DNA from: a phage
NCBI GenBank assembly: GCA_012164735.1
Contig: GCA_012164735.1_4544.1
DNA: 44,855 bases
Reading direction: 5' to 3' (one strand)
Under the pieces are notes generated by a model. That model did not search any database, was not told where the DNA came from, and worked only from the letters and a program-made list of their open reading frames with translations. This document shows positions 167 to 30,487 of this stretch, in pieces. Numbering within the stretch: position 1 is the first letter of the stretch; the number at the start of each line of letters is the position of its first letter. The position numbers and the translations under genes were made by a program.

Positions 167-496
167 ATGAATGTAAACGACGCAATCGAAATGTTAACGA
201 AGACTGTTTGCAGTGAGACTAGCCGGTCCTGGGCGTATACCGATGCCGTGGGTGCGGTGCTATTTGAAATCGAACGTCTGCGACTTACCGAAAAAGAATT
301 GCGCGCGAAGCTGGAATTACTCAACGGTACGGCAGCCAGCAAGCTGCAAAAACACAATGAAGAAATGGAAGAATACAAAAAACAGGTTATCCGTCTACGT
401 GAGGAAGGTAAATCCTGGGCGATGATTGCCGAGTTGACCGGAATTAATCAGAGCACAGTGCGCTCCTGGGTACGCAATAATAAAACTTCTAAGTAA
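167..496 (+). CDS. Small DNA-binding protein with C-terminal helix-turn-helix (possible transcriptional regulator)
   Basis: 109-aa ORF; C-terminal segment KSWAMIAELTGINQSTVRSWVR resembles an HTH; first gene downstream of promoter-like region. Confidence 0.55.
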   Translation: MNVNDAIEMLTKTVCSETSRSWAYTDAVGAVLFEIERLRLTEKELRAKLELLNGTAASKLQKHNEEMEEYKKQVIRLREEGKSWAMIAELTGINQSTVRSWVRNNKTSK

Positions 497-2771: not shown

Positions 2772-2843
2772 ATTCTGCGCGCATTGGTTGCCATTTTGAG
2801 TGTTTTTATCCAGTCGCATTGGTTGCCGTGTAGTGTAAATATA

Positions 2844-3049
2844 GTGAATAGTTATGCAGTTTTATTGCATAAACTAAGCGGGACAAAAAGCGGGACAAAC
2901 AAGGGGCGGGACAAAGCGGGACAGCACCCCAGTCCCGCCCCGGATGGCGCGGCTTCCGGAGGAGCGGGACAGCGGGACAGCACCCCAGTCTTTCAGACTA
3001 GACGGGGGTCAGCGGCCCCCCTCGTCTGAGACTGAATAAAATCCGGAGA
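2844..3049. repeat. Copy 1 of a ~206-bp duplicated non-coding element: GCGGGACA iterons (direct at 2878, 2890, 2906, 2916, 2964, 2972; inverted at 2932) plus a 67-bp imperfect palindrome (2983-3049)
   Basis: Direct comparison with 20071-20276; immediately downstream of the primase-helicase gene. Confidence 0.8.
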
Positions 3050-3251
3050 TTGCAAAATACACGGCAGCATGATGCGAAGTGCGGTCATGGATGAACTAGG
3101 CAACCAATGCGGGTTGTATTATGCTGAGTGAAAAATGCGGTTTGCAGTTGCAGCAGATAGCGATCAACTTTTTCATACGCATGATTAATATTGGTTGCAT
3201 TCAGCCTAGCACCCTGCTAGATTGGTTGCACACCAACATGAGGACTGAACA

Positions 3252-5155: not shown

Positions 5156-5172
5156 ATATGCAAGCGTGATAT

Positions 5173-5207
5173 AGTCCCAGTGAGCTAAAACTTACTGGGA
5201 CTTTTTT
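5173..5207 (+). terminator. Rho-independent terminator
   Basis: Stem agtcccagt/actgggact with 12-nt loop followed by T5-6. Confidence 0.55.
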
Positions 5208-5498
5208 ATGGATAAGCTAAACGAGTGGTTATTCGCCCTCGCGTGTCTTGCAGGTGGCTTCGTTGGCGCTCGCATTCACGGGGAGGCAACGAAAGGGCCG
5301 CTAAACTTTGTGTTGTTTATCGTGGTCGGCTTCTTGTGTGCCGTGTTCGGTGCACCGGCTATTGCTGAGTGGTTTAATCTAACCGGACCGAGAACGGTTG
5401 CCGGTCTTGGCTTCGTTACTGCCATCTTCTGGATGCCGGTAGCTGCCAGAATCCGAGAAGCAATTTCCTCGTTCCGTCTGCCGGGGGGTGCAAAATGA
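5208..5498 (+). CDS. Holin candidate (multi-TM small membrane protein)
   Basis: 96 aa, several hydrophobic segments; directly upstream of second membrane protein and the endolysin. Confidence 0.45.
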   Translation: MDKLNEWLFALACLAGGFVGARIHGEATKGPLNFVLFIVVGFLCAVFGAPAIAEWFNLTGPRTVAGLGFVTAIFWMPVAARIREAISSFRLPGGAK

Positions 5499-6575: not shown

Positions 6576-6636
6576 CCCGCCGCCATAGGGACCGTGGTAT
6601 ATTGTCCCCGGACCCATAATCAGGAAGTAAATTAAT

Positions 6637-7995: not shown

Positions 7996-8021
7996 AGCCC
8001 GCCGATTTGGTGGGCTTTTTT
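7996..8021 (+). terminator. Rho-independent terminator
   Basis: Stem agcccgcc/ggtgggct (one G-U), T6. Confidence 0.5.
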
Positions 8022-8026
8022 GTGCC

Positions 8027-8035
8027 TGTTATAAT
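8027..8035 (+). promoter_or_regulatory. Extended -10 promoter candidate (TGtTATAAT) upstream of terminase genes
   Basis: TG at 8027-8028, TATAAT at 8030-8035. Confidence 0.4.
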
Positions 8036-8105
8036 CCCCCTTAGATGGCTGGGCCGTCTCCTATGTTGCCGATGGTCGGCGCATATGCATAAAAGGGCTT
8101 ATATC

Positions 8106-8657
8106 ATGGCAGAAATCAAAGTTAAGGGCCGTCGTGCCAAACTGGACGGTCGAGTAGCAGTTACCCCGCGCCGTAAACCAGGCGAGCAAACAGAACACAC
8201 CAATCTTGGACCCGAGATCGAATACGGCAAGCGTCGTAAAGGCGGCAAATGTGGACGCCCGACCGACTACCGCACCGTGTATTGTGATCAGCTTCGTCGC
8301 TATTTCGCCGATGCCGTAGCCTGGCAGATCAACTACTCTGACAAGGGTGCTGCGCAAGTCATCCCTCACAACAAGATGCCGACTCTCGGTCGCTTTGCTG
8401 CGGATATTGGCGTTGGCATCGCTTGCCTGTACCGCTGGGCGCGTGCACATGAGGAGTTCGCCGAGGCGATGGCTGACGCAATGGAGTTGCAGAAAACTTT
8501 CTTGATGGAAGCTGGCGGTGTGACCATCGCGGCGGGCTTCGCTACGTTCCTGCTTAAAGCCAACCACGGCATTCGTGACGATGCGCCGCTGGATGACGAC
8601 GAAGGTGATAACGGCGACGTCGTTGTGGAACCTACCGGCAAAGGCCAGGGCGAATAA
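8106..8657 (+). CDS. Terminase small subunit (putative; start at ATG 8106 preferred over ORF-track start 8007)
   Basis: Immediately upstream of, and overlapping, the large terminase; RBS aaaggg; synteny. Confidence 0.5.
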   Translation: MAEIKVKGRRAKLDGRVAVTPRRKPGEQTEHTNLGPEIEYGKRRKGGKCGRPTDYRTVYCDQLRRYFADAVAWQINYSDKGAAQVIPHNKMPTLGRFAADIGVGIACLYRWARAHEEFAEAMADAMELQKTFLMEAGGVTIAAGFATFLLKANHGIRDDAPLDDDEGDNGDVVVEPTGKGQGE

Positions 8658-13108: not shown

Positions 13109-13873
13109 TTATCGCGGAATACCGCAAATCTCGTTGAGAGTTTTCACATCCAGCGCCACCGCCGTGGATTTTGGCTTGTCCGGGTATGGGATGAATTGCT
13201 CAACTTCAGGCCATGCCTTAATCAGCTTTTTGTCAGTATTGTGCAGATCCAGCACACCGGTAACGGTGAGTTTGAACGCATCATACTTCGCGCGCAACTC
13301 GCGACGGGCCTTGTCGTTACGGTCCAGGCGCTTACAGAAGTCGTGGTCTGCCGGGTAGTCCGCGCGACAGCGCGGCTTATAGATCGGCAGCGCTTTCCCG
13401 TCCTCGTCCACTTCGCACACAGAAGCCAGCATTACTTCTTCGTACCCTGGTACAATATCGCCGAGATCGGGAGATAGCTTATTCATGTATTTATATTCCC
13501 AGTATCCGCGATGTACTCGGTATTGTCGTCCGTCGCCGCTCAATGACAGTGTGCGCACATTTCCGCCTGCGTTGATTTCGAAAGTGGCGTCGTAAACGCT
13601 GCCGATGCCTTTTGGGCGGTCAGCGTTATAACTATACGTCGCCTTGTTGGTGTATACGCTTACTCCGTACATCTGCGACGGGTTATCGCCGATTGCTTTA
13701 ATGCGCGCGAGTAGCTCGGCGAAAGTGCGAATGCCTTCCGGCATACAGTCCAGCGTAATGGCGTACGCCAGGTCGCGCGAGTCCATCATGATGGATTTGG
13801 CTTCGGTCGCGATTTCATGGTCGCGCAGGATGTTAGCCAGAATCCGGTTTTTAATGTCTTTCGTCAGTCTCAT
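13109..13873 (-). CDS. Hypothetical protein (254 aa) encoded opposite to the structural operon
   Basis: ATG with RBS gagga; no recognisable domain by inspection. Confidence 0.6.
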   Translation of the reverse strand: MRLTKDIKNRILANILRDHEIATEAKSIMMDSRDLAYAITLDCMPEGIRTFAELLARIKAIGDNPSQMYGVSVYTNKATYSYNADRPKGIGSVYDATFEINAGGNVRTLSLSGDGRQYRVHRGYWEYKYMNKLSPDLGDIVPGYEEVMLASVCEVDEDGKALPIYKPRCRADYPADHDFCKRLDRNDKARRELRAKYDAFKLTVTGVLDLHNTDKKLIKAWPEVEQFIPYPDKPKSTAVALDVKTLNEICGIPR

Positions 13874-13916
13874 TATTGTGTCCTCATTGTTGGGGCTTTC
13901 GCCCCTGTTGGTTTAG

Positions 13917-14324
13917 TTAAAGTGCTTCGAGAATCTCGTAAAACTTATTCGCCAGCGCCTGGCGTCGTTCGAATTTTTCAGTGATAACCAATTCCGGGCG
14001 GTTAAATAGCTTTGCGTGGGTGTTCCAATTGAGGATTTCCGTTTCCATTATTTTCTTCCTGTTGTAATCGGTGTTTTTGATGCTGAATTCCTTGATAGCG
14101 TTATTAAGAAAATCAGTCATACACTCAACGTCTGTTCTCTTAACTTCGAACGTACGGGCCTCGATTGGGCTATTTGTGCGAAGTACGACGACTCCGCCGT
14201 GGTAGGTGTCGACTACCATATACTTATAAGTCACCCCATCCCACTCCGGGTCGAAAGGGCGCCCAAATACGTCGTCGGCTTTCCATACTTTCTGGTACGG
14301 TGTTTCTTTGATTAATGTTGGCAT
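13917..14324 (-). CDS. Hypothetical protein (136 aa), start moved to internal ATG 14324 with RBS aaggaa
   Basis: N-terminal 151 codons of the ORF-track call are low-complexity antisense of the scaffold gene; RBS precedes MPTLIKE. Confidence 0.5.
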   Translation of the reverse strand: MPTLIKETPYQKVWKADDVFGRPFDPEWDGVTYKYMVVDTYHGGVVVLRTNSPIEARTFEVKRTDVECMTDFLNNAIKEFSIKNTDYNRKKIMETEILNWNTHAKLFNRPELVITEKFERRQALANKFYEILEAL

Positions 14325-14352: not shown

Positions 14353-14375
14353 TGCAACCAATATATGCAACCAAT
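14353..14375 (+). promoter_or_regulatory. Paired TGCAACCAAT motifs (14353-14362, 14366-14375) in a divergent intergenic region
   Basis: Two perfect 10-mers 13 bp apart. Confidence 0.5.
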
Positions 14376-14414
14376 ACGAGGATTGCAAGCGAATTTTGCG
14401 ATTATTTTTATCGC

Positions 14415-14423
14415 TGATAATAT
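14415..14423 (+). promoter_or_regulatory. Extended -10 promoter candidate (TGaTAATAT) preceded by TCGCTGATA, upstream of scaffold and capsid genes
   Basis: Same TCGCTGATA-extended -10 arrangement recurs at 20281-20293. Confidence 0.35.
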
Positions 14424-14478
14424 TAGAAGCGTGAAGTCGAGCGGGTGGCCTGCTCTGCCACAATCCCAGGGGGATAGC

Positions 14479-15180
14479 ATGAAACTTACTAAAGCAGAAT
14501 ATGACGCGTTGCCGGAAGGTATGAAGGCGCTTTTTGTTGCCGATGGCGACGGGTATAAATCAACTTTCATGACCGCAGAAGAAGTACAGGCGGAAATCAA
14601 GGGTCTGAAAGACAACAACGCGAAGCTGGTGAGCGAGAAGAAAGCAGAAGCTGAACGCCGCGCCGAAGCCGAGCGACTTGCGAAAGAGAAAGAGGAAGCC
14701 GCTGCGCGCAAAAATGGCGACCTCGAAGCGATCGACAAGTCCTGGAAAGATAAGTTTGCGAAACACGAAGCAGACACATCGGGAAAAATCGAAGCCTACC
14801 GCAAGCAGATCCACGATCTCACCATCGGCAGCGCCGCCAAAGACCTGGCGTCGAAGCTGTTCGGTAAGAATGCGGGCATCATGCAACGTCACGTTATGGA
14901 CCGCCTGACGCTGGAAGACGGCGAAGACGGCAGCTTGAAAGTGCGTGTCTTGCAGGATGGCAAACCGTCCGCGCTGACTATGGAAGAGCTTGAAAAAGAG
15001 TTCCGTAATAACGCCGATTTTGCATCCGTCCTGGCTGGCACGCCAGCCGGTGGCGCGCCTAGCAAACCGACGCAGGTTGTCGAAGATGTGAAGTCTAAAA
15101 TTACGATGGGCCATAGCTTCGGTATCACCGATCTCACCAAACAGGCCGGGGATATCATCGCTAAAATGGGCGACGAGTAA
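14479..15180 (+). CDS. Scaffolding protein (putative), start at ATG 14479
   Basis: 233 aa, charged coiled-coil-like sequence; RBS aggggga; immediately upstream of major capsid gene. Confidence 0.5.
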   Translation: MKLTKAEYDALPEGMKALFVADGDGYKSTFMTAEEVQAEIKGLKDNNAKLVSEKKAEAERRAEAERLAKEKEEAAARKNGDLEAIDKSWKDKFAKHEADTSGKIEAYRKQIHDLTIGSAAKDLASKLFGKNAGIMQRHVMDRLTLEDGEDGSLKVRVLQDGKPSALTMEELEKEFRNNADFASVLAGTPAGGAPSKPTQVVEDVKSKITMGHSFGITDLTKQAGDIIAKMGDE

Positions 15181-15185
15181 GCAGA

Positions 15186-15209
15186 TTGCCCGCGAAAGCG
15201 GGCAATTTT
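15186..15209 (+). terminator. Rho-independent terminator
   Basis: Stem ttgcccgc/gcgggcaa, GAAA loop, T4. Confidence 0.5.
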
Positions 15210-15277
15210 GCGAGCGCGTAAAACTAAGGTAACATTAATGCCACTGGGCGAATGCTCACAACTCAAAGGATTTCGAT

Positions 15278-16378
15278 ATGTCTTTAACAGTGTTCCAGCG
15301 TAAACTCGTTACCGCGGTTACGCAAATGATCCCCGACAACCTGAACGTTTTCAACGCCGCCGCCAATGGCGCTATTGTTCTCGGTACTGGTGAAGTGCTG
15401 AAGGATGTTGTTGAGAAAATGTCCGTAGGCTTGATCGCCAACCTTGTTACCGACCGTAACGCCTACGCCCCTGTCGGTACTCCGGCAACCGCTAAAGTGC
15501 TGGCGCGTATGTTGACCAACTCGGTTAACCTTTCCGCTAAAGTGGGTCCGGTAGCAATCACGAAGGCCATGATGGCTAAAATCGAAACCAACGTTAATAG
15601 CGTTGCGGCTGAGATTGCGGCACAGGCTACTCAAGCGATTATGCTGCACTACCTAAAAGCGGGTATCGGTGCGGGTAAAGCGGCGATCGAAAGCAACGCA
15701 GCGGCAAAATACACCCAACCGGCGCGCGTTGACGGCGTTGGCGGTCGTACCTTCCCGACCCTGGCAGACTTCCCGCTGGCGGCTTCTAAGTTCGGCGATC
15801 AGGCGTCTTTGATTAAGTCCTGGTTTATGGACGGCGTTACCTGGGCAAACTTCATTGCGTACCAGGCACTCCCTTCCGCTGAACAGGTATTCGCAATTGG
15901 CGATCTACAGGTAATGGGTGATGGCCTGGGCCGTCGCTTCATTATCTCCGATGCCGCTGCCGATGCTATGGGCGCTGGTAACATGCTGGGTCTGGTCCCC
16001 GGCGCGGTTGCAGTTACCACCAACGGCCTCGATATGCTGGCGCAGGAGAAAGGCGGTAACGAGAACATCGAACGCTGGTGGCAGGGCGAGTTCGACTTCA
16101 ACGTGGCCGTTAAAGGCTACCGTCTGAAGGCGTCCGCTCGTACCCCGATCGAAGGTGTGCGCTCGTTCAAACTGGACGATATTACCACTTCCGCTAACTG
16201 GGAACTGGACCAGGGCCAGGTAGACAACGCACCGGCAACCGTGCAGGACGTTGGCGCTGTGGGTGATGGTGATACTAAAGGTCGTCGTAAGACCCAGGCC
16301 GCACAGGCAGTGCCTACCCGTCACATCAAGGAAACCGCTGGCGTACTGGTTACGCTGACTGCGACTACCGCGTCTTAA
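15278..16378 (+). CDS. Major capsid protein
   Basis: 366 aa, RBS aagga, followed by strong terminator; synteny. Confidence 0.75.
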   Translation: MSLTVFQRKLVTAVTQMIPDNLNVFNAAANGAIVLGTGEVLKDVVEKMSVGLIANLVTDRNAYAPVGTPATAKVLARMLTNSVNLSAKVGPVAITKAMMAKIETNVNSVAAEIAAQATQAIMLHYLKAGIGAGKAAIESNAAAKYTQPARVDGVGGRTFPTLADFPLAASKFGDQASLIKSWFMDGVTWANFIAYQALPSAEQVFAIGDLQVMGDGLGRRFIISDAAADAMGAGNMLGLVPGAVAVTTNGLDMLAQEKGGNENIERWWQGEFDFNVAVKGYRLKASARTPIEGVRSFKLDDITTSANWELDQGQVDNAPATVQDVGAVGDGDTKGRRKTQAAQAVPTRHIKETAGVLVTLTATTAS

Positions 16379-16396
16379 CGGGCGCACATCCCAAAG

Positions 16397-16421
16397 GGGC
16401 GGGCTTATGCCCGCCTTTTTT
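16397..16421 (+). terminator. Rho-independent terminator after capsid gene
   Basis: Stem gggcgggc/gcccgcc, loop ttat, T6. Confidence 0.65.
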
Positions 16422-16436
16422 ATAGGAGTGAATACA

Positions 16437-16937
16437 ATGTATGGCGACCCGCAAACCTTTGTCGATTATGCCGCTGCGCGAGGCGTTGAAATTACGCTAG
16501 GCGATGCAACGCGACACCTTACCATCGTTAACGACTTTCTTAACGGCATCAACTGGATCGGCGAACCGGCGGACCAGACAGGAATAGACGCATGGCCCCG
16601 CATCAATTACCCATCGGACGGGAAGCCGGTGCGCGACACGCTAACCGAAGTCGTGGCGGTAGTGCCTGTCGGGCAAATCGTAGACTTTGCATCAATCCCC
16701 GTTGCCGTTGAGCAAGCTGTTTACCGGCTGGCGCTGTTGGTGGCGGACGAGATCGATATTTCTCCGGTCGGCGATGGTAAAGAGACTATCCGCGAAACGG
16801 TCGGCCCGATCACGATGGAATATGACCCGGCGTCGATTGGTAGCGGGGTGTCGTTCCCGTGGTGGGATGGCTTGTTAGGGCACTGGGTTGATTCAGGCGG
16901 CAACGCCGCAGGCAATTTCGACGTATTCAGGGGGTGA
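16437..16937 (+). CDS. Hypothetical structural protein (possible head-tail connector), start at ATG 16437
   Basis: RBS aggag; ORF-track start 16407 lies inside the terminator. Confidence 0.45.
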   Translation: MYGDPQTFVDYAAARGVEITLGDATRHLTIVNDFLNGINWIGEPADQTGIDAWPRINYPSDGKPVRDTLTEVVAVVPVGQIVDFASIPVAVEQAVYRLALLVADEIDISPVGDGKETIRETVGPITMEYDPASIGSGVSFPWWDGLLGHWVDSGGNAAGNFDVFRG

Positions 16938-17041
16938 TATGAATCCTGCATTACTCGCGGCGATTATCGCCGCCAACGCTAAACGGCAACCAGAACAACC
17001 GGAGCCAGAACCAGTACCACCGGCACAGGAGAGTGAAGAAG

Positions 17042-17395
17042 ATGGCGGGCTTTAATTACGCAGGATTAAAGCGGAAAGTTAATCCGCTGATTAAAAAATT
17101 CGGCATGACCGTTACGGTTACGCGTCCGGGATCGGTTGACCGCGTAGACGGCGAAGAAGTGGTCATCCCGCCGACCTCGTTTGACGTCATCGGTCTTCGC
17201 GAGGAGTACAAGCCTAGCGAGATCGACGGGACGCGTATCGTTGCCGGTGATGTGAAGTTTTTATGTCGGGCGGTTGAGCAATTGCGGGTGGGCGACCTTG
17301 TTAACCTGAACGGCACTGACTACCGGGTCGTCAACCCTAACCCACTGCAACCGGCGGGCACTACCATGCTGTTTCAACTACAGCTAAGGGGCTAA
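17042..17395 (+). CDS. Head-tail joining protein (putative)
   Basis: Position between capsid and tail genes; RBS aggag. Confidence 0.4.
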   Translation: MAGFNYAGLKRKVNPLIKKFGMTVTVTRPGSVDRVDGEEVVIPPTSFDVIGLREEYKPSEIDGTRIVAGDVKFLCRAVEQLRVGDLVNLNGTDYRVVNPNPLQPAGTTMLFQLQLRG

Positions 17396-17396
17396 C

Positions 17397-17990
17397 GTGG
17401 CTGAAGTCTACTCATTCGCCGCCACTATTGCTACGTGGGTGGATAAGACGAAGGAGAACAACGATAAGGCGGTGCGGGCGTACGGGATGCAAATACTAGG
17501 ACGCCTGATCGAGATCTCCCCAGTAGGCGACCCCCGCCGGTGGAAAATTAACAGGGCTTACGCGCTGGCCCGCCAGCACGCGAACAAGGTGAACGCCGCG
17601 CAGCGTCGCAAGAATGGTGGCAAACTGAAGCGCGGGCAGAAAAAGCACGCCAGCGTGCTGGTATCATTCAAAACTAAAAACGGCAACGTCACGTTCCGCC
17701 AGCGTGGCTGGGCTGCGAAGAATTACACCGGCGGGCGCTTCCGTGGTAACTGGCAGGTGACGTTTGATCGCCCGGCTGTCGGCGCTATTGATCGCGTTGA
17801 CAAGGCCGGAACGGCAACATTAGCCGCGGGGCGTGAAGTGCTGGCGCATTACGATTCGAGTGAATACGGGTCGATCTGGTTTACTAACAACGTGCCATAC
17901 GCGCAGCGACTTGAGTATGGCTGGAGTAAACAAGCGCCCGCGGGGATTGTTCGCGTCGTAGCGGCAGAAATTAATTCGAAGGTGAAATAA
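17397..17990 (+). CDS. Head-tail connector / tail completion protein (putative), GTG start
   Basis: 197-aa ORF, synteny. Confidence 0.4.
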   Translation: MAEVYSFAATIATWVDKTKENNDKAVRAYGMQILGRLIEISPVGDPRRWKINRAYALARQHANKVNAAQRRKNGGKLKRGQKKHASVLVSFKTKNGNVTFRQRGWAAKNYTGGRFRGNWQVTFDRPAVGAIDRVDKAGTATLAAGREVLAHYDSSEYGSIWFTNNVPYAQRLEYGWSKQAPAGIVRVVAAEINSKVK

Positions 17991-18412
17991 TGAGCAATAC
18001 CGCAATCCGCAAAGCGCTTAACAGCGTGGTTGAAGAGTTATCGGCAAGCCTGAGCACAAGCCAGCGTCCGATTATGGTTAACTGGGAGAACGTGAGCGGC
18101 GACCACGCAAACGGCAGCGGTGTCTACCTGGAGCCGTACCTGCTACCGGCCCCGACCCAGTTTGTGGGCTTACAGCAGAAGGGCCGGATCTATGCTGGCG
18201 TATATCAGGTTGCCGTGGTGTTCCCGGCGGGCACAGGCACACAGTACGCGAGCGAACTGGCGGACGCCATCGCTACATCGGATAAGTGGTCGGCGGTGAA
18301 GATTTCCGGCGCGTCATTTCAGCTTCAGGACGCGCCATACACCAGTTCAGTGATTGAAGACGTTGATCGCGCCCGCATCGTGGTTACAGTCCCCTACACC
18401 TGTTGCGCCTGA
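17990..18412 (+). CDS. Tail terminator / tail completion protein (putative)
   Basis: 140 aa, ATGA overlap, immediately upstream of major tail protein. Confidence 0.4.
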   Translation: MSNTAIRKALNSVVEELSASLSTSQRPIMVNWENVSGDHANGSGVYLEPYLLPAPTQFVGLQQKGRIYAGVYQVAVVFPAGTGTQYASELADAIATSDKWSAVKISGASFQLQDAPYTSSVIEDVDRARIVVTVPYTCCA

Positions 18413-18473
18413 TTTGGCGCAATTCTGCGCGTGCTGTATCATTAAACCGTATATCTAAACAGGAGCGTTCATT

Positions 18474-19199
18474 ATGGGTTATCAACTTCCTAACGGGTCC
18501 AGCGTGCAGATCGGGTCCGTATTGGGTGCAGGCATCGCAGTTACGGCAGCGACCAACGCCGCGGCGTCAATCTCCGATCTTACGCAAGGATGCGTTATCA
18601 CCTGCGCGGCGTCGCATGGTCTTGCTGTGGGAGACGTGGTTATGTTCACTAAAACCCCGTGGGTACGTGCGCTTAACCGCGCGTTCATCGTGGGTAAAGT
18701 GGATACTAACGACGTGACGCTGGCGCGCTTCGATACTCAAGACGTAACCAAATACCCGACCGGTGCTTTCGGAGTAGGCACACCGGGTGAGGTGGTGAAG
18801 GTGTCGAGCTTTATCGACTTCCCGTTTATCACTAACGTTGCCGTGTCGGGTGGCGACCAGCAGACCACCACCTTCCAGCCGTTGCAGGTGAATACCGCGA
18901 TCAGTCTGAACACCACGAAAAACCCGTTGGTCCAGACCTACACTTTCACCCACGACGAAGAAGACCCGATCCGCCCGATTCTGGAAGACCTGGACGACAC
19001 ACAGAAAACCACTGTGATTAAGTTCACCAACCCGGCAGCGGCAAGCGGCAAAGGTGAGATCCGCATTTACCCGGCTAAGGTGTCTTTCCAGAAGATTCCA
19101 TCTGCTGAAGTAAATAACGTGGAGACGGTGGAGTCCACCCTCACTATGCAGTCCGATATGGTTATTTACCGTAAGGACTTGGTCGAGGCGCTGTCGTAA
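18474..19199 (+). CDS. Major tail protein (tube)
   Basis: 241 aa, strong RBS, followed by terminator then the G/GT chaperone pair. Confidence 0.6.
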   Translation: MGYQLPNGSSVQIGSVLGAGIAVTAATNAAASISDLTQGCVITCAASHGLAVGDVVMFTKTPWVRALNRAFIVGKVDTNDVTLARFDTQDVTKYPTGAFGVGTPGEVVKVSSFIDFPFITNVAVSGGDQQTTTFQPLQVNTAISLNTTKNPLVQTYTFTHDEEDPIRPILEDLDDTQKTTVIKFTNPAAASGKGEIRIYPAKVSFQKIPSAEVNNVETVESTLTMQSDMVIYRKDLVEALS

Positions 19200-19229
19200 T
19201 TTGGTCGCTTAAATAGCGGGTGTTAATAT

Positions 19230-19252
19230 GGGGCCAGTACGGCCCCTTTTTT
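19230..19252 (+). terminator. Rho-independent terminator
   Basis: Stem ggggcc/ggcccc, loop agtac, T6. Confidence 0.6.
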
Positions 19253-19269
19253 ATTGGAGAATTACATAA

Positions 19270-19631
19270 TGGCTAAATCACCACTCTTCACACTTGACCC
19301 TAAACCGACATTTAAGCTGCCGATTGAGATCCCGCGCCCTGGTGAGAACGAACCGGGCAAAATGACGTTTACCGTGCGCCACCGCCCTATCGACGAATTT
19401 TCGCAGACCATGCAGGACACTGAGCGCAAATTGTCGGAGTATGACGACAATGACCCGGAAGGATTTAACGTTATGGTCGAGGCCATCATGCACGTCGCTG
19501 AAGGCTGGAATTTGCCGGACGAATTTAATGCTGCCAACGTCCGCCGCCTGGTGGTCAACTACCCGCGCGCGTTCGGCGTGTTCCATACGTCGTACTATCT
19601 CGAACTGATGGGGTTGCGTGAAAAAAACTAA
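19270..19631 (+). CDS. Tail assembly chaperone (lambda G-like), zero-frame product
   Basis: Position before tape measure; ends at a slippery site. Confidence 0.65.
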
Positions 19632-19945
19632 TTGAGGCGGCGCGACGCTTTTATGGCCCGCCGCCACCCTCCGAAGATTTAGCTGCGAGTTTATGGGGCG
19701 CGACCCCTGAAGATGTTTGCCCGCCGGTTGCGCTATGGCCTGACAACGCGAAGGTAGTCGCCGTCTTCACTGATTGCTCCACGCAATGGCGCACCGGATT
19801 CGGTGGCGCATACGGCATCGACTACGGTGTACTGGAATGGCTATTTAAGATGCACGGCATCGAAAACGCGCAACGTGCGTTTAAAGATATCAAGCTAATG
19901 GAACGCGTTGCGCTGGATGAAATGGCGCGGCAGAACCACGCATAG
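19270..19945 (+). CDS. Tail assembly chaperone GT-like fusion via programmed -1 frameshift at A_AAA_AAC (19622-19628)
   Basis: Open -1 frame from 19628 to stop TAG 19943-19945 (105 codons) directly after a canonical slippery heptamer. Confidence 0.55.
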
Positions 19946-19949
19946 CGGA

Positions 19950-20276
19950 GCGGGACAGGCGGGACGTCCCGTTTTGTCCCGCCACAATTAAACCGCATAT
20001 ATACTCACTTTCATTGCATAAACTAAAAGCGGGACAGGGGAGCTGTCCCGATCTGTCCCGCACCCAAAATGTGAATATCTATTCAGTTTTCGTGCATAAA
20101 GTAAGCGGGACAAAAAGCGGGACAGAATGAGGCGGGACAAAGCGGGACAGCACCCCTGTCCCCGTCAGTGCTGCCGCGGGTTTTAGCCGATCGGGACTGG
20201 CGGGACAAACCCCAGTCTTTCAGACTAGACGGGGGTCAATGGCCCCCCTCGTCTGAGACTGAATAAGGTTTGTTTT
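19950..20276. repeat. Copy 2 of the duplicated element and additional iterons: GCGGGACA direct at 19950, 19959, 20029, 20105, 20117, 20132, 20142, 20200; inverted at 19975, 20044, 20054; 67-bp palindrome at 20210-20276
   Basis: Counted directly; 20071-20276 aligns with 2844-3049. Confidence 0.8.
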
Positions 20277-20284
20277 AAATTCGC

Positions 20285-20293
20285 TGATACAAT
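20285..20293 (+). promoter_or_regulatory. Extended -10 promoter candidate (TGaTACAAT) preceded by TCGCTGATA, upstream of tape measure gene
   Basis: TG 20285-20286, TACAAT 20288-20293. Confidence 0.35.
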
Positions 20294-20329
20294 GACCGAC
20301 GGCAACTGCATAAAAAGGGGGACTGCATA

Positions 20330-22975
20330 ATGGCAGATCAGGCAGCGGGCATCACGCTCAAGGCGGACGTCGCGCAAATCAAAACGGCTAATACTGTGCT
20401 GGACACATTTGCGCAGAAATCCGAGAACACAGAACAGAAAGTAAAGAAGTTAAACGACACACTCGGCAAGTCGAAAAAGGTTACTGGCGACGCCGCTGGC
20501 GGAATGGAAAAGTTAGCGACTGAATCGCAGCGCGCCGCCGACGGCATGACGAAACAGGAGCGACTCGCCAGCCGATTAGGCATGTCGACCAAAAACCTGG
20601 GATTTGCATCGCGGAACGCCGCATTCCAGTTACAGGATATCGCGGTGACGCTTGAAATGGGTATGCCGGTGCATCGAGTCATGCTTCAGCAGCTACCACA
20701 GCTTACGGGGGCGTTTGGCGGGTTGGGGAATACGCTGCGTTATGTCGTCGGCACCCTCGGCCCGTTAGGGATCGGCATCGCTGCATTAACGGCAACGATG
20801 GGCGTTGGCGTGTCGATTATGTCCCGCGCGGAAAACCAAGTGGCGGCGCTTAACAAGACGCTGGCACTGTCCGGTAATATTTCTGGCCTCACCGCTAACC
20901 AGATCCTGGTGCTATCCGAGAACGCCGAGCGGATGGGCGGATCATTCCGCAAGACGCGTGACACCATTCAGTCACTGGCGGCGGCTGGTGTGAAAGCGGG
21001 TGCGGACTTCGGCGCACTGGCGAAGGTGGTGAATGACTTCTCGAAGGTGTCCAGCCAGCCGATCGAAGATGTGGTCGCGGCGGTGGCGAAGCTGTCAACC
21101 GACCCGGTAGGCGGCTTGCGCGCACTGGCGGATAAGTATCACGTTGTAAACGAAGCGCAGATCCAGCAGGTGCAGTCGTTGGTGGATATGGGGCGCGAGA
21201 CAGATGCGGTTGCGTTGGCTAACAAAACCGCCGCCGCGTCGTTCACCACTATGACCAACGATATCAAGGCGAACATGGGTACGCTTGAGCGATCTATGAA
21301 CGTCGTCACATCGGCAGCTAAATCCATGTGGGACGCCATCCTGGATGTGGGTCGCGCGCAGTCCTCCAATGAGTCAGAGATGAAAGCGCGTGAATCCTTG
21401 CAGCGCATGACCACTGCTTACTATGCCGAGATGAAAGCGGTAAACGCTGCCGGTGGGGTAATGACTGAAGCGCAGAAAGCACGTATTAACATGCTTTATA
21501 GCGAACTGGTCGCCCAGGAGAAAGTAGTGGCGTCGCTCACCATGCGTAACCGTGCGGAGCGTGACAACGCCCGTTCCGCGGACGAATCCGCAAAGGCGAA
21601 CGAGGAGGCCAACCGCACCGCCCGCGACCGCGCTGCGTTCGAGAAGGAGTACGCGACCAACGCGAAGAAGCGCGCAGACGAGATCGCCCGCCTCAATTTG
21701 CTGAATAAACGCGGCGTAATTGATGAGAAAGAACTAGCCGAGGCGGTGAAGCAGGTAAACGAGCGCTACAAAGACCCGGCCCCGAAAAAGGCCGCGGCTG
21801 TTCGCGTGGATGCCGGTATGAAAATGCTGGAGGTTGCACGGAGCGAACTGGCCCAGCTTCGAGAATCCGGCAAGCAGATCGAAGCCAACGCGTCTACGCA
21901 GACCCGCACGCAACGCGCTCAAGCGGCCTTAAACAAGCTGATCGCCGACAATGAGCAGTTAATCGTCGCGAGCAAAGAAAGGGCGCTAACGGCAGCAGAG
22001 AAGCAGCAGATGGTCGAATTCGGACGCGTGAAGGAAGTGCGCGAGCAGATCGTCGAAGAAGCCAAATTGCTGGACGCGAAAGAGAAGCAGGTTAAGGCGC
22101 ACGCGCAGATCGATGCCTTCGTTAAGAACCAGAACGCCGAGCTAAAAGCCACCGCGGCTGGCTATGCGCTTTCCACTCGAGAAGCGGCAAACCTGCGTGA
22201 AGAATTGCAGCTAATCGACCGCCTGAAGCGTGTAGGCGCTAACGATACCGATATTGACAAGGCGGTGTCTAAGCTGCGGGAAGTGCAGGAGGCGCAGACC
22301 GGCGCTAACGCCTCGCTATGGGATGGATTCAGTCGCGGGCTTAAGGATAGCGTGGATGAGATGGGTAACGGATATACGCAGATGACGTCACTCACAAAAT
22401 TCACGTTCAGCGCTATGCAGGACACGATGAACGAATTTTTCGAGACGGGCAAGCTGAGCGCGAAGGATATGGTTAAGTCCATCCTGAGCGAATTAATCAA
22501 GCTAGCTACCTCGCAGGCGTTCAAATCCGTCGTTAGCGCTTTCGGCGGTGACGGCGGCAAAAACGGATTGTTCGGCGCTATCTTCTCCGGCCTCACTAAG
22601 AACGCAGACGGCGGAGCGTACGCAGGAGGCAACCTCGCGGCCTATTCGGGGCAAGTGGTAAGCCAGCCTACCTTTTTCAGCTATGGCGTCCAGGCGTTCG
22701 CGAAGGGCGCAGGATTGATGGGTGAGGCTGGACCCGAGGCAATCATGCCACTGAAGCGCGGGCCGGATGGGAAACTGGGCGTTGCCGCTGCCGGTGTTGG
22801 TGGGGGTGGGATGATTGTAACGACCAACGTGAACATGGGGACCGGTAAAACGGACACCAGTGTGAGCGGACCGGACCCACGCACCGCGCAGGCGTTCGGC
22901 AAGCAAATCACCGAGTCGGTCAAGGCTGAGATCGTGAAAGCGACGAAACCGGGTGGAGTACTTTACAAACGATGA
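20330..22975 (+). CDS. Tail tape measure protein
   Basis: 881 aa, Ala/Gln-rich helical; follows G/GT; length implies a tail of roughly 130 nm at about 0.15 nm per residue. Confidence 0.85.
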   Translation: MADQAAGITLKADVAQIKTANTVLDTFAQKSENTEQKVKKLNDTLGKSKKVTGDAAGGMEKLATESQRAADGMTKQERLASRLGMSTKNLGFASRNAAFQLQDIAVTLEMGMPVHRVMLQQLPQLTGAFGGLGNTLRYVVGTLGPLGIGIAALTATMGVGVSIMSRAENQVAALNKTLALSGNISGLTANQILVLSENAERMGGSFRKTRDTIQSLAAAGVKAGADFGALAKVVNDFSKVSSQPIEDVVAAVAKLSTDPVGGLRALADKYHVVNEAQIQQVQSLVDMGRETDAVALANKTAAASFTTMTNDIKANMGTLERSMNVVTSAAKSMWDAILDVGRAQSSNESEMKARESLQRMTTAYYAEMKAVNAAGGVMTEAQKARINMLYSELVAQEKVVASLTMRNRAERDNARSADESAKANEEANRTARDRAAFEKEYATNAKKRADEIARLNLLNKRGVIDEKELAEAVKQVNERYKDPAPKKAAAVRVDAGMKMLEVARSELAQLRESGKQIEANASTQTRTQRAQAALNKLIADNEQLIVASKERALTAAEKQQMVEFGRVKEVREQIVEEAKLLDAKEKQVKAHAQIDAFVKNQNAELKATAAGYALSTREAANLREELQLIDRLKRVGANDTDIDKAVSKLREVQEAQTGANASLWDGFSRGLKDSVDEMGNGYTQMTSLTKFTFSAMQDTMNEFFETGKLSAKDMVKSILSELIKLATSQAFKSVVSAFGGDGGKNGLFGAIFSGLTKNADGGAYAGGNLAAYSGQVVSQPTFFSYGVQAFAKGAGLMGEAGPEAIMPLKRGPDGKLGVAAAGVGGGGMIVTTNVNMGTGKTDTSVSGPDPRTAQAFGKQITESVKAEIVKATKPGGVLYKR

Positions 22976-22982
22976 TAAAATG

Positions 22983-23011
22983 GCCCTCACATACAACGTG
23001 GGGGCTTTTTT
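22983..23011 (+). terminator. Rho-independent terminator abutting the next start codon
   Basis: Stem gccctcac/gtgggggc (one mismatch), T6 ending 1 nt before ATG 23012. Confidence 0.45.
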
Positions 23012-30185: not shown

Positions 30186-30407
30186 TTACCACTCCCGTGA
30201 TTTAACTGATACAGTACCTGAGAAATTGCCGTCGCTATCGGCAGATAGGCCAGTGAAGCGCATGTCCACGCCTCCGGCAGGGACTTTTTGCCCGTCAACA
30301 TAACGCAACATGCAGCTTCCGTAAGCCACCGTAATGCAATCACCGTTGTTGCGTTCTACGGCACAACCGGACAAAAGAACAGCACAAATCATAATTAAAG
30401 TTTTCAT
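30186..30407 (-). CDS. Small lipoprotein (73 aa), candidate superinfection-exclusion protein (Cor/Llp-like)
   Basis: MKTLIMICAVLLSGC signal peptide with lipobox LSGC; strong RBS aggag; location between tail tip and fiber genes. Confidence 0.6.
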   Translation of the reverse strand: MKTLIMICAVLLSGCAVERNNGDCITVAYGSCMLRYVDGQKVPAGGVDMRFTGLSADSDGNFSGTVSVKSREW

Positions 30408-30487
30408 GTTATCATCTCCTATATTTGGTTGAGTTTTAGTATTACACCGCTCGATCAAGAATGCAACCAATTTATGAGGATTTAGCT

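Follow-up and report, generated by a model that had tools for sequence, protein, structure and literature searches.

Introduction

The galP1 promoter of Escherichia coli is an example of a sigma-70 extended −10 promoter, a type in which the extended −10 contacts are made by sigma regions 3.0 and 2.4; a near-consensus −10 hexamer combined with TG is normally enough for the sigma-70 holoenzyme. Phage lambda has a single late promoter, PR′, and relies on Q antitermination through a long late operon. The late promoters of Mu (C/Mor), P2 (Ogr) and TP901-1 (Alt) need an activator site, and those of T4, with the motif TATAAATA, need gp55/gp33. In this study, we analyzed a 44,855-nt stretch of phage DNA (NCBI GenBank assembly GCA_012164735.1, contig GCA_012164735.1_4544.1; hereafter, the window) with respect to three similar motifs located upstream of the terminase (terS), scaffold and tape measure genes. 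A preliminary description had taken them for −35-independent, possibly activator-dependent late promoters, two of which shared a separate TCGCTGATA element. Our results indicate that the three sites are probably promoters used by the host sigma-70 RNA polymerase. Support for this looks good at the terS and scaffold sites and reasonable at the tape measure site. The sites are well supported as elements of an ordinary, expected kind, a new instance of a well-known one.

Position and Sequence of the Three Sites

All three motifs lie on the plus strand exactly where they had been placed: TCGCTGATAATAT at 14411–14423, 56 nt upstream of the scaffold gene (ATG at 14479), TCGCTGATACAAT at 20281–20293, 37 nt upstream of the tape measure gene (ATG at 20330), and TGTTATAAT at 8027–8035, 72 nt upstream of terS (ATG at 8107). 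The extended −10 elements within them are TGaTAATAT (14415–14423), TGaTACAAT (20285–20293) and TGtTATAAT (8027–8035). The predicted transcription starts are at about 14429–14431, 20299–20301 and 8042, respectively, giving predicted leaders of approximately 50, 30 and 65 nt to the start codons. As in sigma-70 extended −10 promoters, the hexamers TAATAT, TACAAT and TATAAT are close to TATAAT and keep A(−11) and T(−7), with scores of 6.9–9.7 bits. TG occupies positions −15/−14, one base 5′ of the hexamer, at all three sites and is invariant in members of the genus, while the base between TG and the hexamer is T or A at the terS site and also varies at two other late sites.

The proposed independence of a −35 element held for the tape measure site, which has none, but not for the other two. 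The scaffold site has TTGCGA at 14396–14401 (plus strand) with a 16-bp spacer to the −10 hexamer; this element is present in 19 of 20 genus members and reads TTGTGA in one. At the terS site, TTGGTG (8007–8012; 17-bp spacing) matches in TTG only and is contained in the 3′ arm of the intrinsic terminator of the preceding unit (7996–8016, plus strand).

The idea of a separate shared TCGCTGATA element did not survive closer comparison. Exact copies occur twice in the window, at the scaffold and tape measure sites only, against about 0.34 expected on both strands by our own arithmetic, and 11 matches with one mismatch were found against 9.4 expected; the 9-mer itself is barely beyond chance. Its TCGC part changes to TCAC in 3 of 20 genomes at the scaffold site and to TAGC or TGAC in 3 of 18 at the tape measure site, and none of the five remaining extended −10 sites in the late block has it. 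The part shared by the motifs is the extended −10 promoter element TGnTAnnAT and not a TCGCTGATA box. In the late block, the seven extended −10 sites have G or C in 20 of 21 cases at −18 to −16, and this bias largely explains the TCGC coincidence. By our own estimate, some pair among 21 would share these five extra letters with a probability of the order of 0.02 for unbiased bases, rising to 0.2 when the G/C bias is allowed for.

The motif class as a whole is clearly beyond chance. When sites were scored with a sigma-70 position weight matrix (PWM), the terS, scaffold and tape measure sites ranked 4, 15 and 450 of 89,638 positions; on the −10 and TG score alone, the tape measure site was tied seventh among the 37 extended −10 sites found. 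TG together with a −10 score of at least 6.9 bits was present at 17 sites, 8 of them intergenic, though intergenic DNA makes up 6.5% of positions. All eight are on the plus strand ahead of late genes (5170, 6598, 8030, 14418, 19224, 20288, 22976 and 30410), "late" being assigned here and below from gene content only. Within the intergenic segments of the late block, TGn followed by a strong −10 hexamer occurs seven times on the plus strand and never on the minus strand, and 1000 dinucleotide-preserving shuffles of the same segments gave 0.61 ± 0.76, none reaching seven. All late-block sites are intergenic and on the coding strand of the downstream gene.

Genome and Comparison Sets

The window is a complete Dhillonvirus genome (an HK578-like E. 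coli siphovirus). The 8.5 kb around the sites matched 159 phage records at 80–95% identity, nearly all from Escherichia phages of the genus Dhillonvirus, with a query cover of at least 80% in 145 records. Gene layout was obtained by mapping the annotation of a close relative onto the window. A rightward block (167–29190) contains genes for a small helix-turn-helix (HTH) protein and a helicase-primase, small genes, lysis genes, an exonuclease gene, terS/terL, and the portal, scaffold, capsid, tail, tape measure and tip genes; the replication block is leftward and extends from 44800 to 29218. The annotation of the close relative includes no RNA polymerase gene, and therefore the host polymerase must transcribe the phage; it includes no gp55-like protein either. 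The GC-skew profile follows transcription direction only, and no Rfam family matched anywhere in the window at gathering thresholds.

For comparison within the genus, the three upstream regions were aligned in 18–20 members (loci L001–L019). A diverged set was collected through scaffold homologues of 44–68% identity, which led to ten syntenic contigs (L020–L025 and L028–L030).

Conservation of the Sites and Structure of the Leaders

Within the genus, the sites look like genuine extended −10 promoters ahead of late operons, as had been proposed: an invariant TGnTAnnAT is followed by a hypervariable discriminator in 18–20 genomes. At the scaffold site, TG and TAATAT are unchanged in 20/20 genomes, the bases after the hexamer exist in five versions (TAGAA, TAAG, TAAAG, TAGGG and TAAGG), and conservation returns at GCGTGAAGTC, approximately at the predicted +1. 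This intergenic block is conserved although the adjoining leftward genes are unrelated between genomes. The terS motif TGTTATAAT is present in all genomes except L016 and L018, which carry a 12-nt insertion at the site, yet cTGaTATAAT has been re-created there. At the tape measure site, CTGATACAAT is unchanged in 18/18 genomes, the next 6–7 nt occur in six versions, and a conserved GGCAAC follows. The invariant TGnTAnnAT, the free discriminator and the conserved leader together form the footprint expected of a promoter.

The promoter interpretation was further borne out by positions kept in diverged relatives, by covarying leader hairpins at two sites and by the enrichment on one strand. At scaffold-protein identities of only 50–68%, a sigma-70-type promoter of altered sequence still occupies the scaffold and terS positions of syntenic relatives. 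At the scaffold position, every diverged lineage except the most distant one, L024, has a sigma-70-type promoter. Four retain TG: TTGTGA-16-TGtTATGAT in L020, TTGAAT-16-TGcTATTCT in L021, TTGTGA-16-TGcTATCAT in L028 and TTGAAA-16-TGtTACTAT in L029. TG is missing from TTGCAC-17-TATATT in L022, L023 and L030, and from TTGAAT-17-TATATT in L025. The terS position shows a similar picture, with TGaTATACT in L021 and TGtTATACT in L028 and L029, TTGCCT-17-TATAAT in L022, TTGCAT-16-TATAAT in L030, and TATAAT in the same place in L023. Relatives thus exchange TG for a better −35 element with a 17-bp spacer, which points to host sigma-70 as the reader and is the main argument against a dedicated phage factor.

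The evidence from conservation is weaker for the tape measure site than for the scaffold and terS sites. L020 has TGcTACAAT in an otherwise different context, L021 has TTCGCA-17-TAAACT, and the more distant lineages have −10-like hexamers only. An alternative hexamer, TAAATT at 20276–20281, scored higher on the full model but was rejected, as it reads GAAATT, GAAATA or AAAATG in other genomes.

The predicted leaders of the terS and scaffold transcripts contain hairpins that occupy approximately +1 to +25. In the scaffold leader, the hairpin GAGCGGG-tgg-CCTGCTC (14439–14455, plus strand) lies 11–15 nt past the −10 hexamer and has a GGG-TGG-CCC top on a stem that varies by lineage. In an alignment of 11 sequences, two-sided changes were found at 5/8 pairs and 88% of cells were paired; none of 500 shuffles equalled the alignment in percentage of pairing, number of two-sided changes or covariation score, and the signal collapsed in slid controls. 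The terS leader has two hairpins (8043–8059 and 8068–8080, plus strand), with compensatory changes in 8 of 12 predicted pairs and no pair broken in eight lineages; the first begins 7–8 nt past the hexamer, at the predicted 5′ end. The G-U pairs of the scaffold and terS hairpins fit an RNA read from the plus strand. Across lineages L020–L030, the hairpins of both leaders show an NGG triloop on a G/C stem (GGG-TGG-CCC, CCGA-TGG-TCGG), which could be a common protein-binding or stabilizing element.

The translation starts of terS (8086–8114) and the tape measure gene (20307–20337) resemble each other (TGCATAAAAGGG...ATGGCAGA), and CGGCAAC of the tape measure leader also occurs in the terS leader of L021 and L029. 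We considered a cos site in the stretch that separates terS from its promoter, as several database records begin at TATAATCC (HK578 at window position 8085, LM40P1 8 nt earlier). It was rejected: the start of the HK578 record coincides with the ATG of the long reading frame of terS, and terS relatives match GP3_package or Sf6_terminase, which are headful-packaging families, and therefore the record starts look conventional. A palindrome in the scaffold spacer, GCGAT-N7-ATCGC, was likewise rejected as a protein site. Both arms are changed in one genome (GTGAT...ATCAC), one arm alone is changed in two, and the palindrome is not found in the more distant relatives.

Late Promoters and Terminators

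Besides the three sites, the plus strand carries further late promoter candidates. Extended −10 elements precede the holin genes (TGaTATAGT, 5167–5175, overlapping a terminator at 5173–5202), the exonuclease gene (TGgTATATT, 6595–6603, conserved in the genus), the tail chaperone gene (TGtTAATAT, 19221–19229, abutting a terminator at 19230–19246) and the minor tail gene (TGaTAAAAT, 22973–22981, overlapping the tape measure stop codons and abutting a terminator at 22982–23006). One more, TGtTATCAT at 30407–30415, precedes a plus-strand tail-fibre gene within the minus-strand block and is described from this genome alone. Two conserved candidates lack TG: one directly follows the scaffold terminator and precedes the capsid gene (TTGCGA-16-TAACAT, 15208–15235), and the other precedes the major tail gene (TTGGCG-17-TATCAT, 18414–18442). 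The additional late-block sites are conserved in the genus, and several of their positions recur in relatives. At site 6598, CCGTGRTATATTG is kept (CCATGATATATTG in one genome) beside upstream DNA that is unrelated between genomes. The capsid promoter in L020, L021, L028 and L029 has TTGnnn-16- followed by TAACAT, TATCAT, TATTAT or TACCAT. A −10-like hexamer lies 0–4 nt before the hairpin at the chaperone site in 9 of 10 relatives outside the close Dhillonvirus set, and in the place of the minor tail site relatives have TGaTAAACT, TGaTAGACT, TATAAT or TGaTATGCT.

Terminators separate the late units at 5173, 6405, 7996, 13083, about 15185, 16397, 19230 and 22982. An extended −10 element abuts an intrinsic terminator hairpin at 5167–5208, 19221–19252 and 22973–23011, an arrangement that recurs in about ten diverged lineages at the chaperone and minor tail genes. 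Since the hexamer abuts the terminator stem at 5170, 19224 and 22976, the start predicted for these sites is in the 5′ arm or loop.

Nine late promoters aligned on the hexamer share a loose ATTT(T)G(G/C) −35 in six cases, including the scaffold (TTGCGA) and terS (TTGGTG) sites; beyond this, no common sequence was found upstream of −20. TTG-type −35 elements are present at the scaffold, capsid, major tail, chaperone and terS promoters, and none at 6598, 20288 and 22976. The T4-type late motif TATAAATA was found at none of the late sites examined.

Early Promoters and Candidate Regulators

The intergenic promoter-like sites ahead of early, replication and moron genes are characterized by −35 elements of the TTGACA or TTGCA type. 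Every such site also has a copy of GCAACCAAN no more than 45 bp away, mostly inside the spacer or covering the −10 hexamer. These sites are located at 3218 and 6459 and, on the minus strand, at 14360, 30438, 33453, 35126, 38077, 41922 and 44816. None of the late promoters has GCAACCAAN within 45 bp. The operator-like GCAACCAAT, which marks all promoters of the early type and adjoins no late one, occurs in 16 exact copies in the window, for example at 2783, 3190, 3221, 6465, 14354, 14367, 35134, 35151 and 44823. The motif reads ATTGGTTGCA on the gene-ward strand, and its TTGCA part forms the −35 element in one orientation. This GCAACCAAT/ATTGGTTGCA motif is a likely site of a repressor or other regulator.

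The repeats described upstream of the scaffold and tape measure sites are indeed present, but they belong to two different families and do not represent activator sites shared by the promoters. Upstream of the scaffold site, the two copies of GCAACCAAT (14354–14375) are part of a divergent leftward promoter (TTGCAA-17-TATATT, 14354–14388, minus strand), not to the rightward one. Within the late block, a two-gene leftward cassette with its own strong promoter occupies 13109–14324 (minus strand). One of its genes matches Nmad5 (nucleotide-modification associated), and the cassette is swapped for unrelated genes in other genus members.

The search for regulators covered nineteen proteins, compared with Pfam or PHROGs, and recognized a single DNA-binding protein, the 109-aa product of the first rightward early gene (167–493, plus strand), which has a C-terminal HTH matching HTH_23 and Sigma70_r4_2 (27.6 bits) and carries the database annotation "transposase"; a PDB sequence search with it was uninformative, and the PHROGs matches pointed to nothing specific. 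These 19 proteins include no homologue of AsiA or of a known late activator. The suggested activator dependence was thus not borne out: the −10 regions are near consensus, the sites share no common upstream site, and the scanned proteins include no activator homologue.

Iteron Module Upstream of the Tape Measure Gene

The tape measure site follows a duplicated module of about 190 bp (2840–3030 and, on the plus strand, 19946–20265). It consists of an AT-rich palindrome (TGAATAnnTATTCA), a TGCATAAA box, four to six GCGGGACA octamers and a conserved GC-rich hairpin. The TGCATAAA box is CGTGCATAA, loosely DnaA-box-like, and reads CGTGGATAA in L021. The octamer occurs in 19 copies against 2.2 expected, in two clusters (2878–2979 and 19950–20207), with copies at 20105–20207 nearest the tape measure site. 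No extended −10 element was found behind the module copy at 2840–3030. The GC-rich hairpin (20214–20262) was rejected as a terminator, being unflagged by the terminator scan and having no adjoining T-run.

Relatives keep the architecture of the module with a lineage-specific octamer: GTGTGCCA, GTGTGGCA, GGGTGCCA, AAGGGAT or CTCGCAA. Where checked (the window and L023), the octamer is identical at both sites of a genome, and in L023 the lineage-specific repeat stands after the helicase-primase gene and before the tape measure gene. The arrangement looks like specific protein-binding iterons, possibly replication origins, rather than an activator site. We take the module to be comparable, by analogy, to the ori/crr of P4 bound by its primase-helicase.

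The metagenome contigs L028 and L029 break off inside the module before the tape measure gene, as expected if it is repeated within those genomes. Upstream, the tail chaperone gene (19600–19945 region) ends in GAAAAAAAC. A DUF1799-type reading frame in a different phase comes next, as is usual for a G/GT frameshift, and the module begins directly after the stop codon of this frame.

Proposed Mechanism

From these features of the DNA we infer dependence on sigma-70, independence of an activator, the start sites and the timing of expression. TG at −15/−14 and the near-consensus −10 hexamer would carry most of the recognition by the sigma-70 holoenzyme. The −35 element probably makes a real contribution at the scaffold site, contributes TTG only at terS, and would contribute nothing at the tape measure site. 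The late region may be divided into short transcription units by about ten rightward promoters; eight belong to the extended −10 type, one of these lying before the tail-fibre gene and the other seven within the late block. Each promoter appears to be placed where rightward transcription would just have been interrupted, presumably by an intrinsic terminator at terS, capsid, holin, chaperone and minor tail, by the opposite-strand moron cassette at the scaffold gene, and by the inserted iteron module at the tape measure gene. With terminators between the units and a separate promoter for each, the scaffold, capsid, tail tube and minor proteins would be made at different levels. At 5170, 19224 and 22976, the new RNA, starting in the 5′ arm or loop, should be unable to form the hairpin, and a stem-loop at the 5′ start of the terS and scaffold transcripts probably stabilizes them. 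Late expression is assumed to follow from shut-off of the early operator-bearing promoters together with template amplification, not from activation.

Several points weigh against this interpretation. The searched literature contains no transcription start or promoter data for any Dhillonvirus, and the PWM only approximates published base frequencies. Genus members are 90–97% identical in the compared regions, and invariance alone is weak evidence at this distance; the strongest arguments for promoters come from about ten diverged lineages only. The tape measure site lacks a −35 element and ranks only 450 on the full score, and a promoter is lacking there in two relatives (L024, in which the intergenic gap is missing, and L025, in which the space is too short), and therefore the tape measure gene can be expressed by read-through. 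At three of the additional sites, the A/T-rich hexamer could stem from stop codons or terminator-flanking A-tracts. Finally, many small early proteins have no known function, which makes a phage factor acting on the late promoters possible.

Alternative Explanations

We consider it unlikely that the sites form a phage-controlled late class, weak or silent with unmodified host polymerase and either switched on by an activator or spared by an AsiA-like protein that disables sigma region 4, so that only −35-independent extended −10 promoters stay active. Such control would fit the existence of two promoter classes, a TGn-enriched late one without GCAACCAAN and an early one combining TTGACA/TTGCA-type −35 elements with GCAACCAAN, as well as the G/C preference at −18 to −16 and the GTGCGC found just upstream of the −10 hexamer in three late promoters of L022. 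The 109-aa protein with its sigma-70 region-4-like HTH and the many early proteins without known function could supply the factor. The cores of such promoters, however, should be too poor for unaided initiation, whereas the TATAAT, TAATAT and TACAAT hexamers with TG are near consensus, and the terS and scaffold sites rank among the best of the genome. The lack of a common sequence upstream of −20, the TTG-type −35 elements at five of the promoters, the trade of TG for a better −35 in relatives and the lack of a late-activator or AsiA homologue in the scanned set also argue against it. A more specific scheme, which we hold to be distinctly unlikely, would make the TGn promoters a dedicated late class in a phage-driven switch. 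An early protein, for which the 109-aa HTH protein is the candidate, would silence the −35-dependent, GCAACCAAT-bearing promoters or sigma region 4, and the sites at 5167–5175, 19221–19229 and 22973–22981 would be built into terminators so that the new transcript escapes the hairpin. If true, this would amount to a compact unit that stops the old transcript and starts the new one, conserved across about ten lineages.

It is very unlikely that the tape measure site (20285–20293) belongs to the iteron module and serves origin activation or priming instead of gene expression. The module has an origin-like anatomy with lineage-specific iterons, the site stands directly after it, and L024 has neither module nor promoter there. 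Against this, the promoter is directed away from the iterons into the tape measure gene 37 nt downstream, the second module copy (2840–3030) has no equivalent −10 element behind it, a promoter would not fit in L025 although the module is there, and conservation of the leader, from about +1 to the start codon, resembles that of a translation initiation region. That the matches are functionless chance products of A/T-rich intergenic DNA is hardly credible. Although TCGCTGATA is not enriched when one mismatch is allowed and TGNTAYAAT occurs 3 times genome-wide against 1.9 expected, no shuffle out of 1000 reached the one-strand intergenic count, TG and the hexamer are invariant beside hypervariable flanks, the terS motif was re-created after an insertion, its position and that of the scaffold motif are kept in diverged relatives, and structured leaders follow both.

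Comparison with Known Systems

Among E. coli phages, dhillonviruses are common ones that serve in reference collections, in studies of defence systems and in engineering. The searched literature yielded no transcription map for them, and the present result provides a testable one, comprising about ten late promoters with predicted starts, paired terminators, structured leaders and a separate early class with an operator-like motif. Such a map may be useful for the placement of payload genes and the interpretation of RNA-seq data, and it bears on the order of gene expression in a phage that has neither a polymerase of its own nor any known late activator. The biology is expected rather than surprising.

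The sites most closely resemble E. coli extended −10 (TGn) promoters such as galP1, with the same TG one base before a hexamer keeping A(−11) and T(−7). The −35 element is likewise weak or absent, and TG quality trades off against −35 quality across relatives. They differ in that the scaffold, chaperone and terS promoters keep a TTG-type −35 element and are thus of a mixed type, and in that the phage sites are known from sequence only. The late promoters of Mu, P2, TP901-1 and T4 also serve late structural genes and have weak or missing −35 elements at some sites; here, by contrast, no shared upstream site exists, the −10 is of the host type, and the proteins scanned include no homologous factor.

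Like lambda, the phage is a siphovirus with lambda-like head and tail gene order transcribed by the host polymerase. Its late region, unlike that of lambda, is broken by at least seven intrinsic terminators, each with its own promoter, and neither a Q-like protein nor a Q-binding site was found in this phage. Expression here resembles repeated re-initiation more than antitermination. Re-initiation after intrinsic termination, by RNA polymerase that has remained on the DNA, has been reported (PMC6978380). As in that system, a terminator and a promoter lie a few bases apart, which would favour polymerase recycling, by analogy only; in three cases in the window, however, the −10 element lies upstream of the hairpin and not downstream of it.

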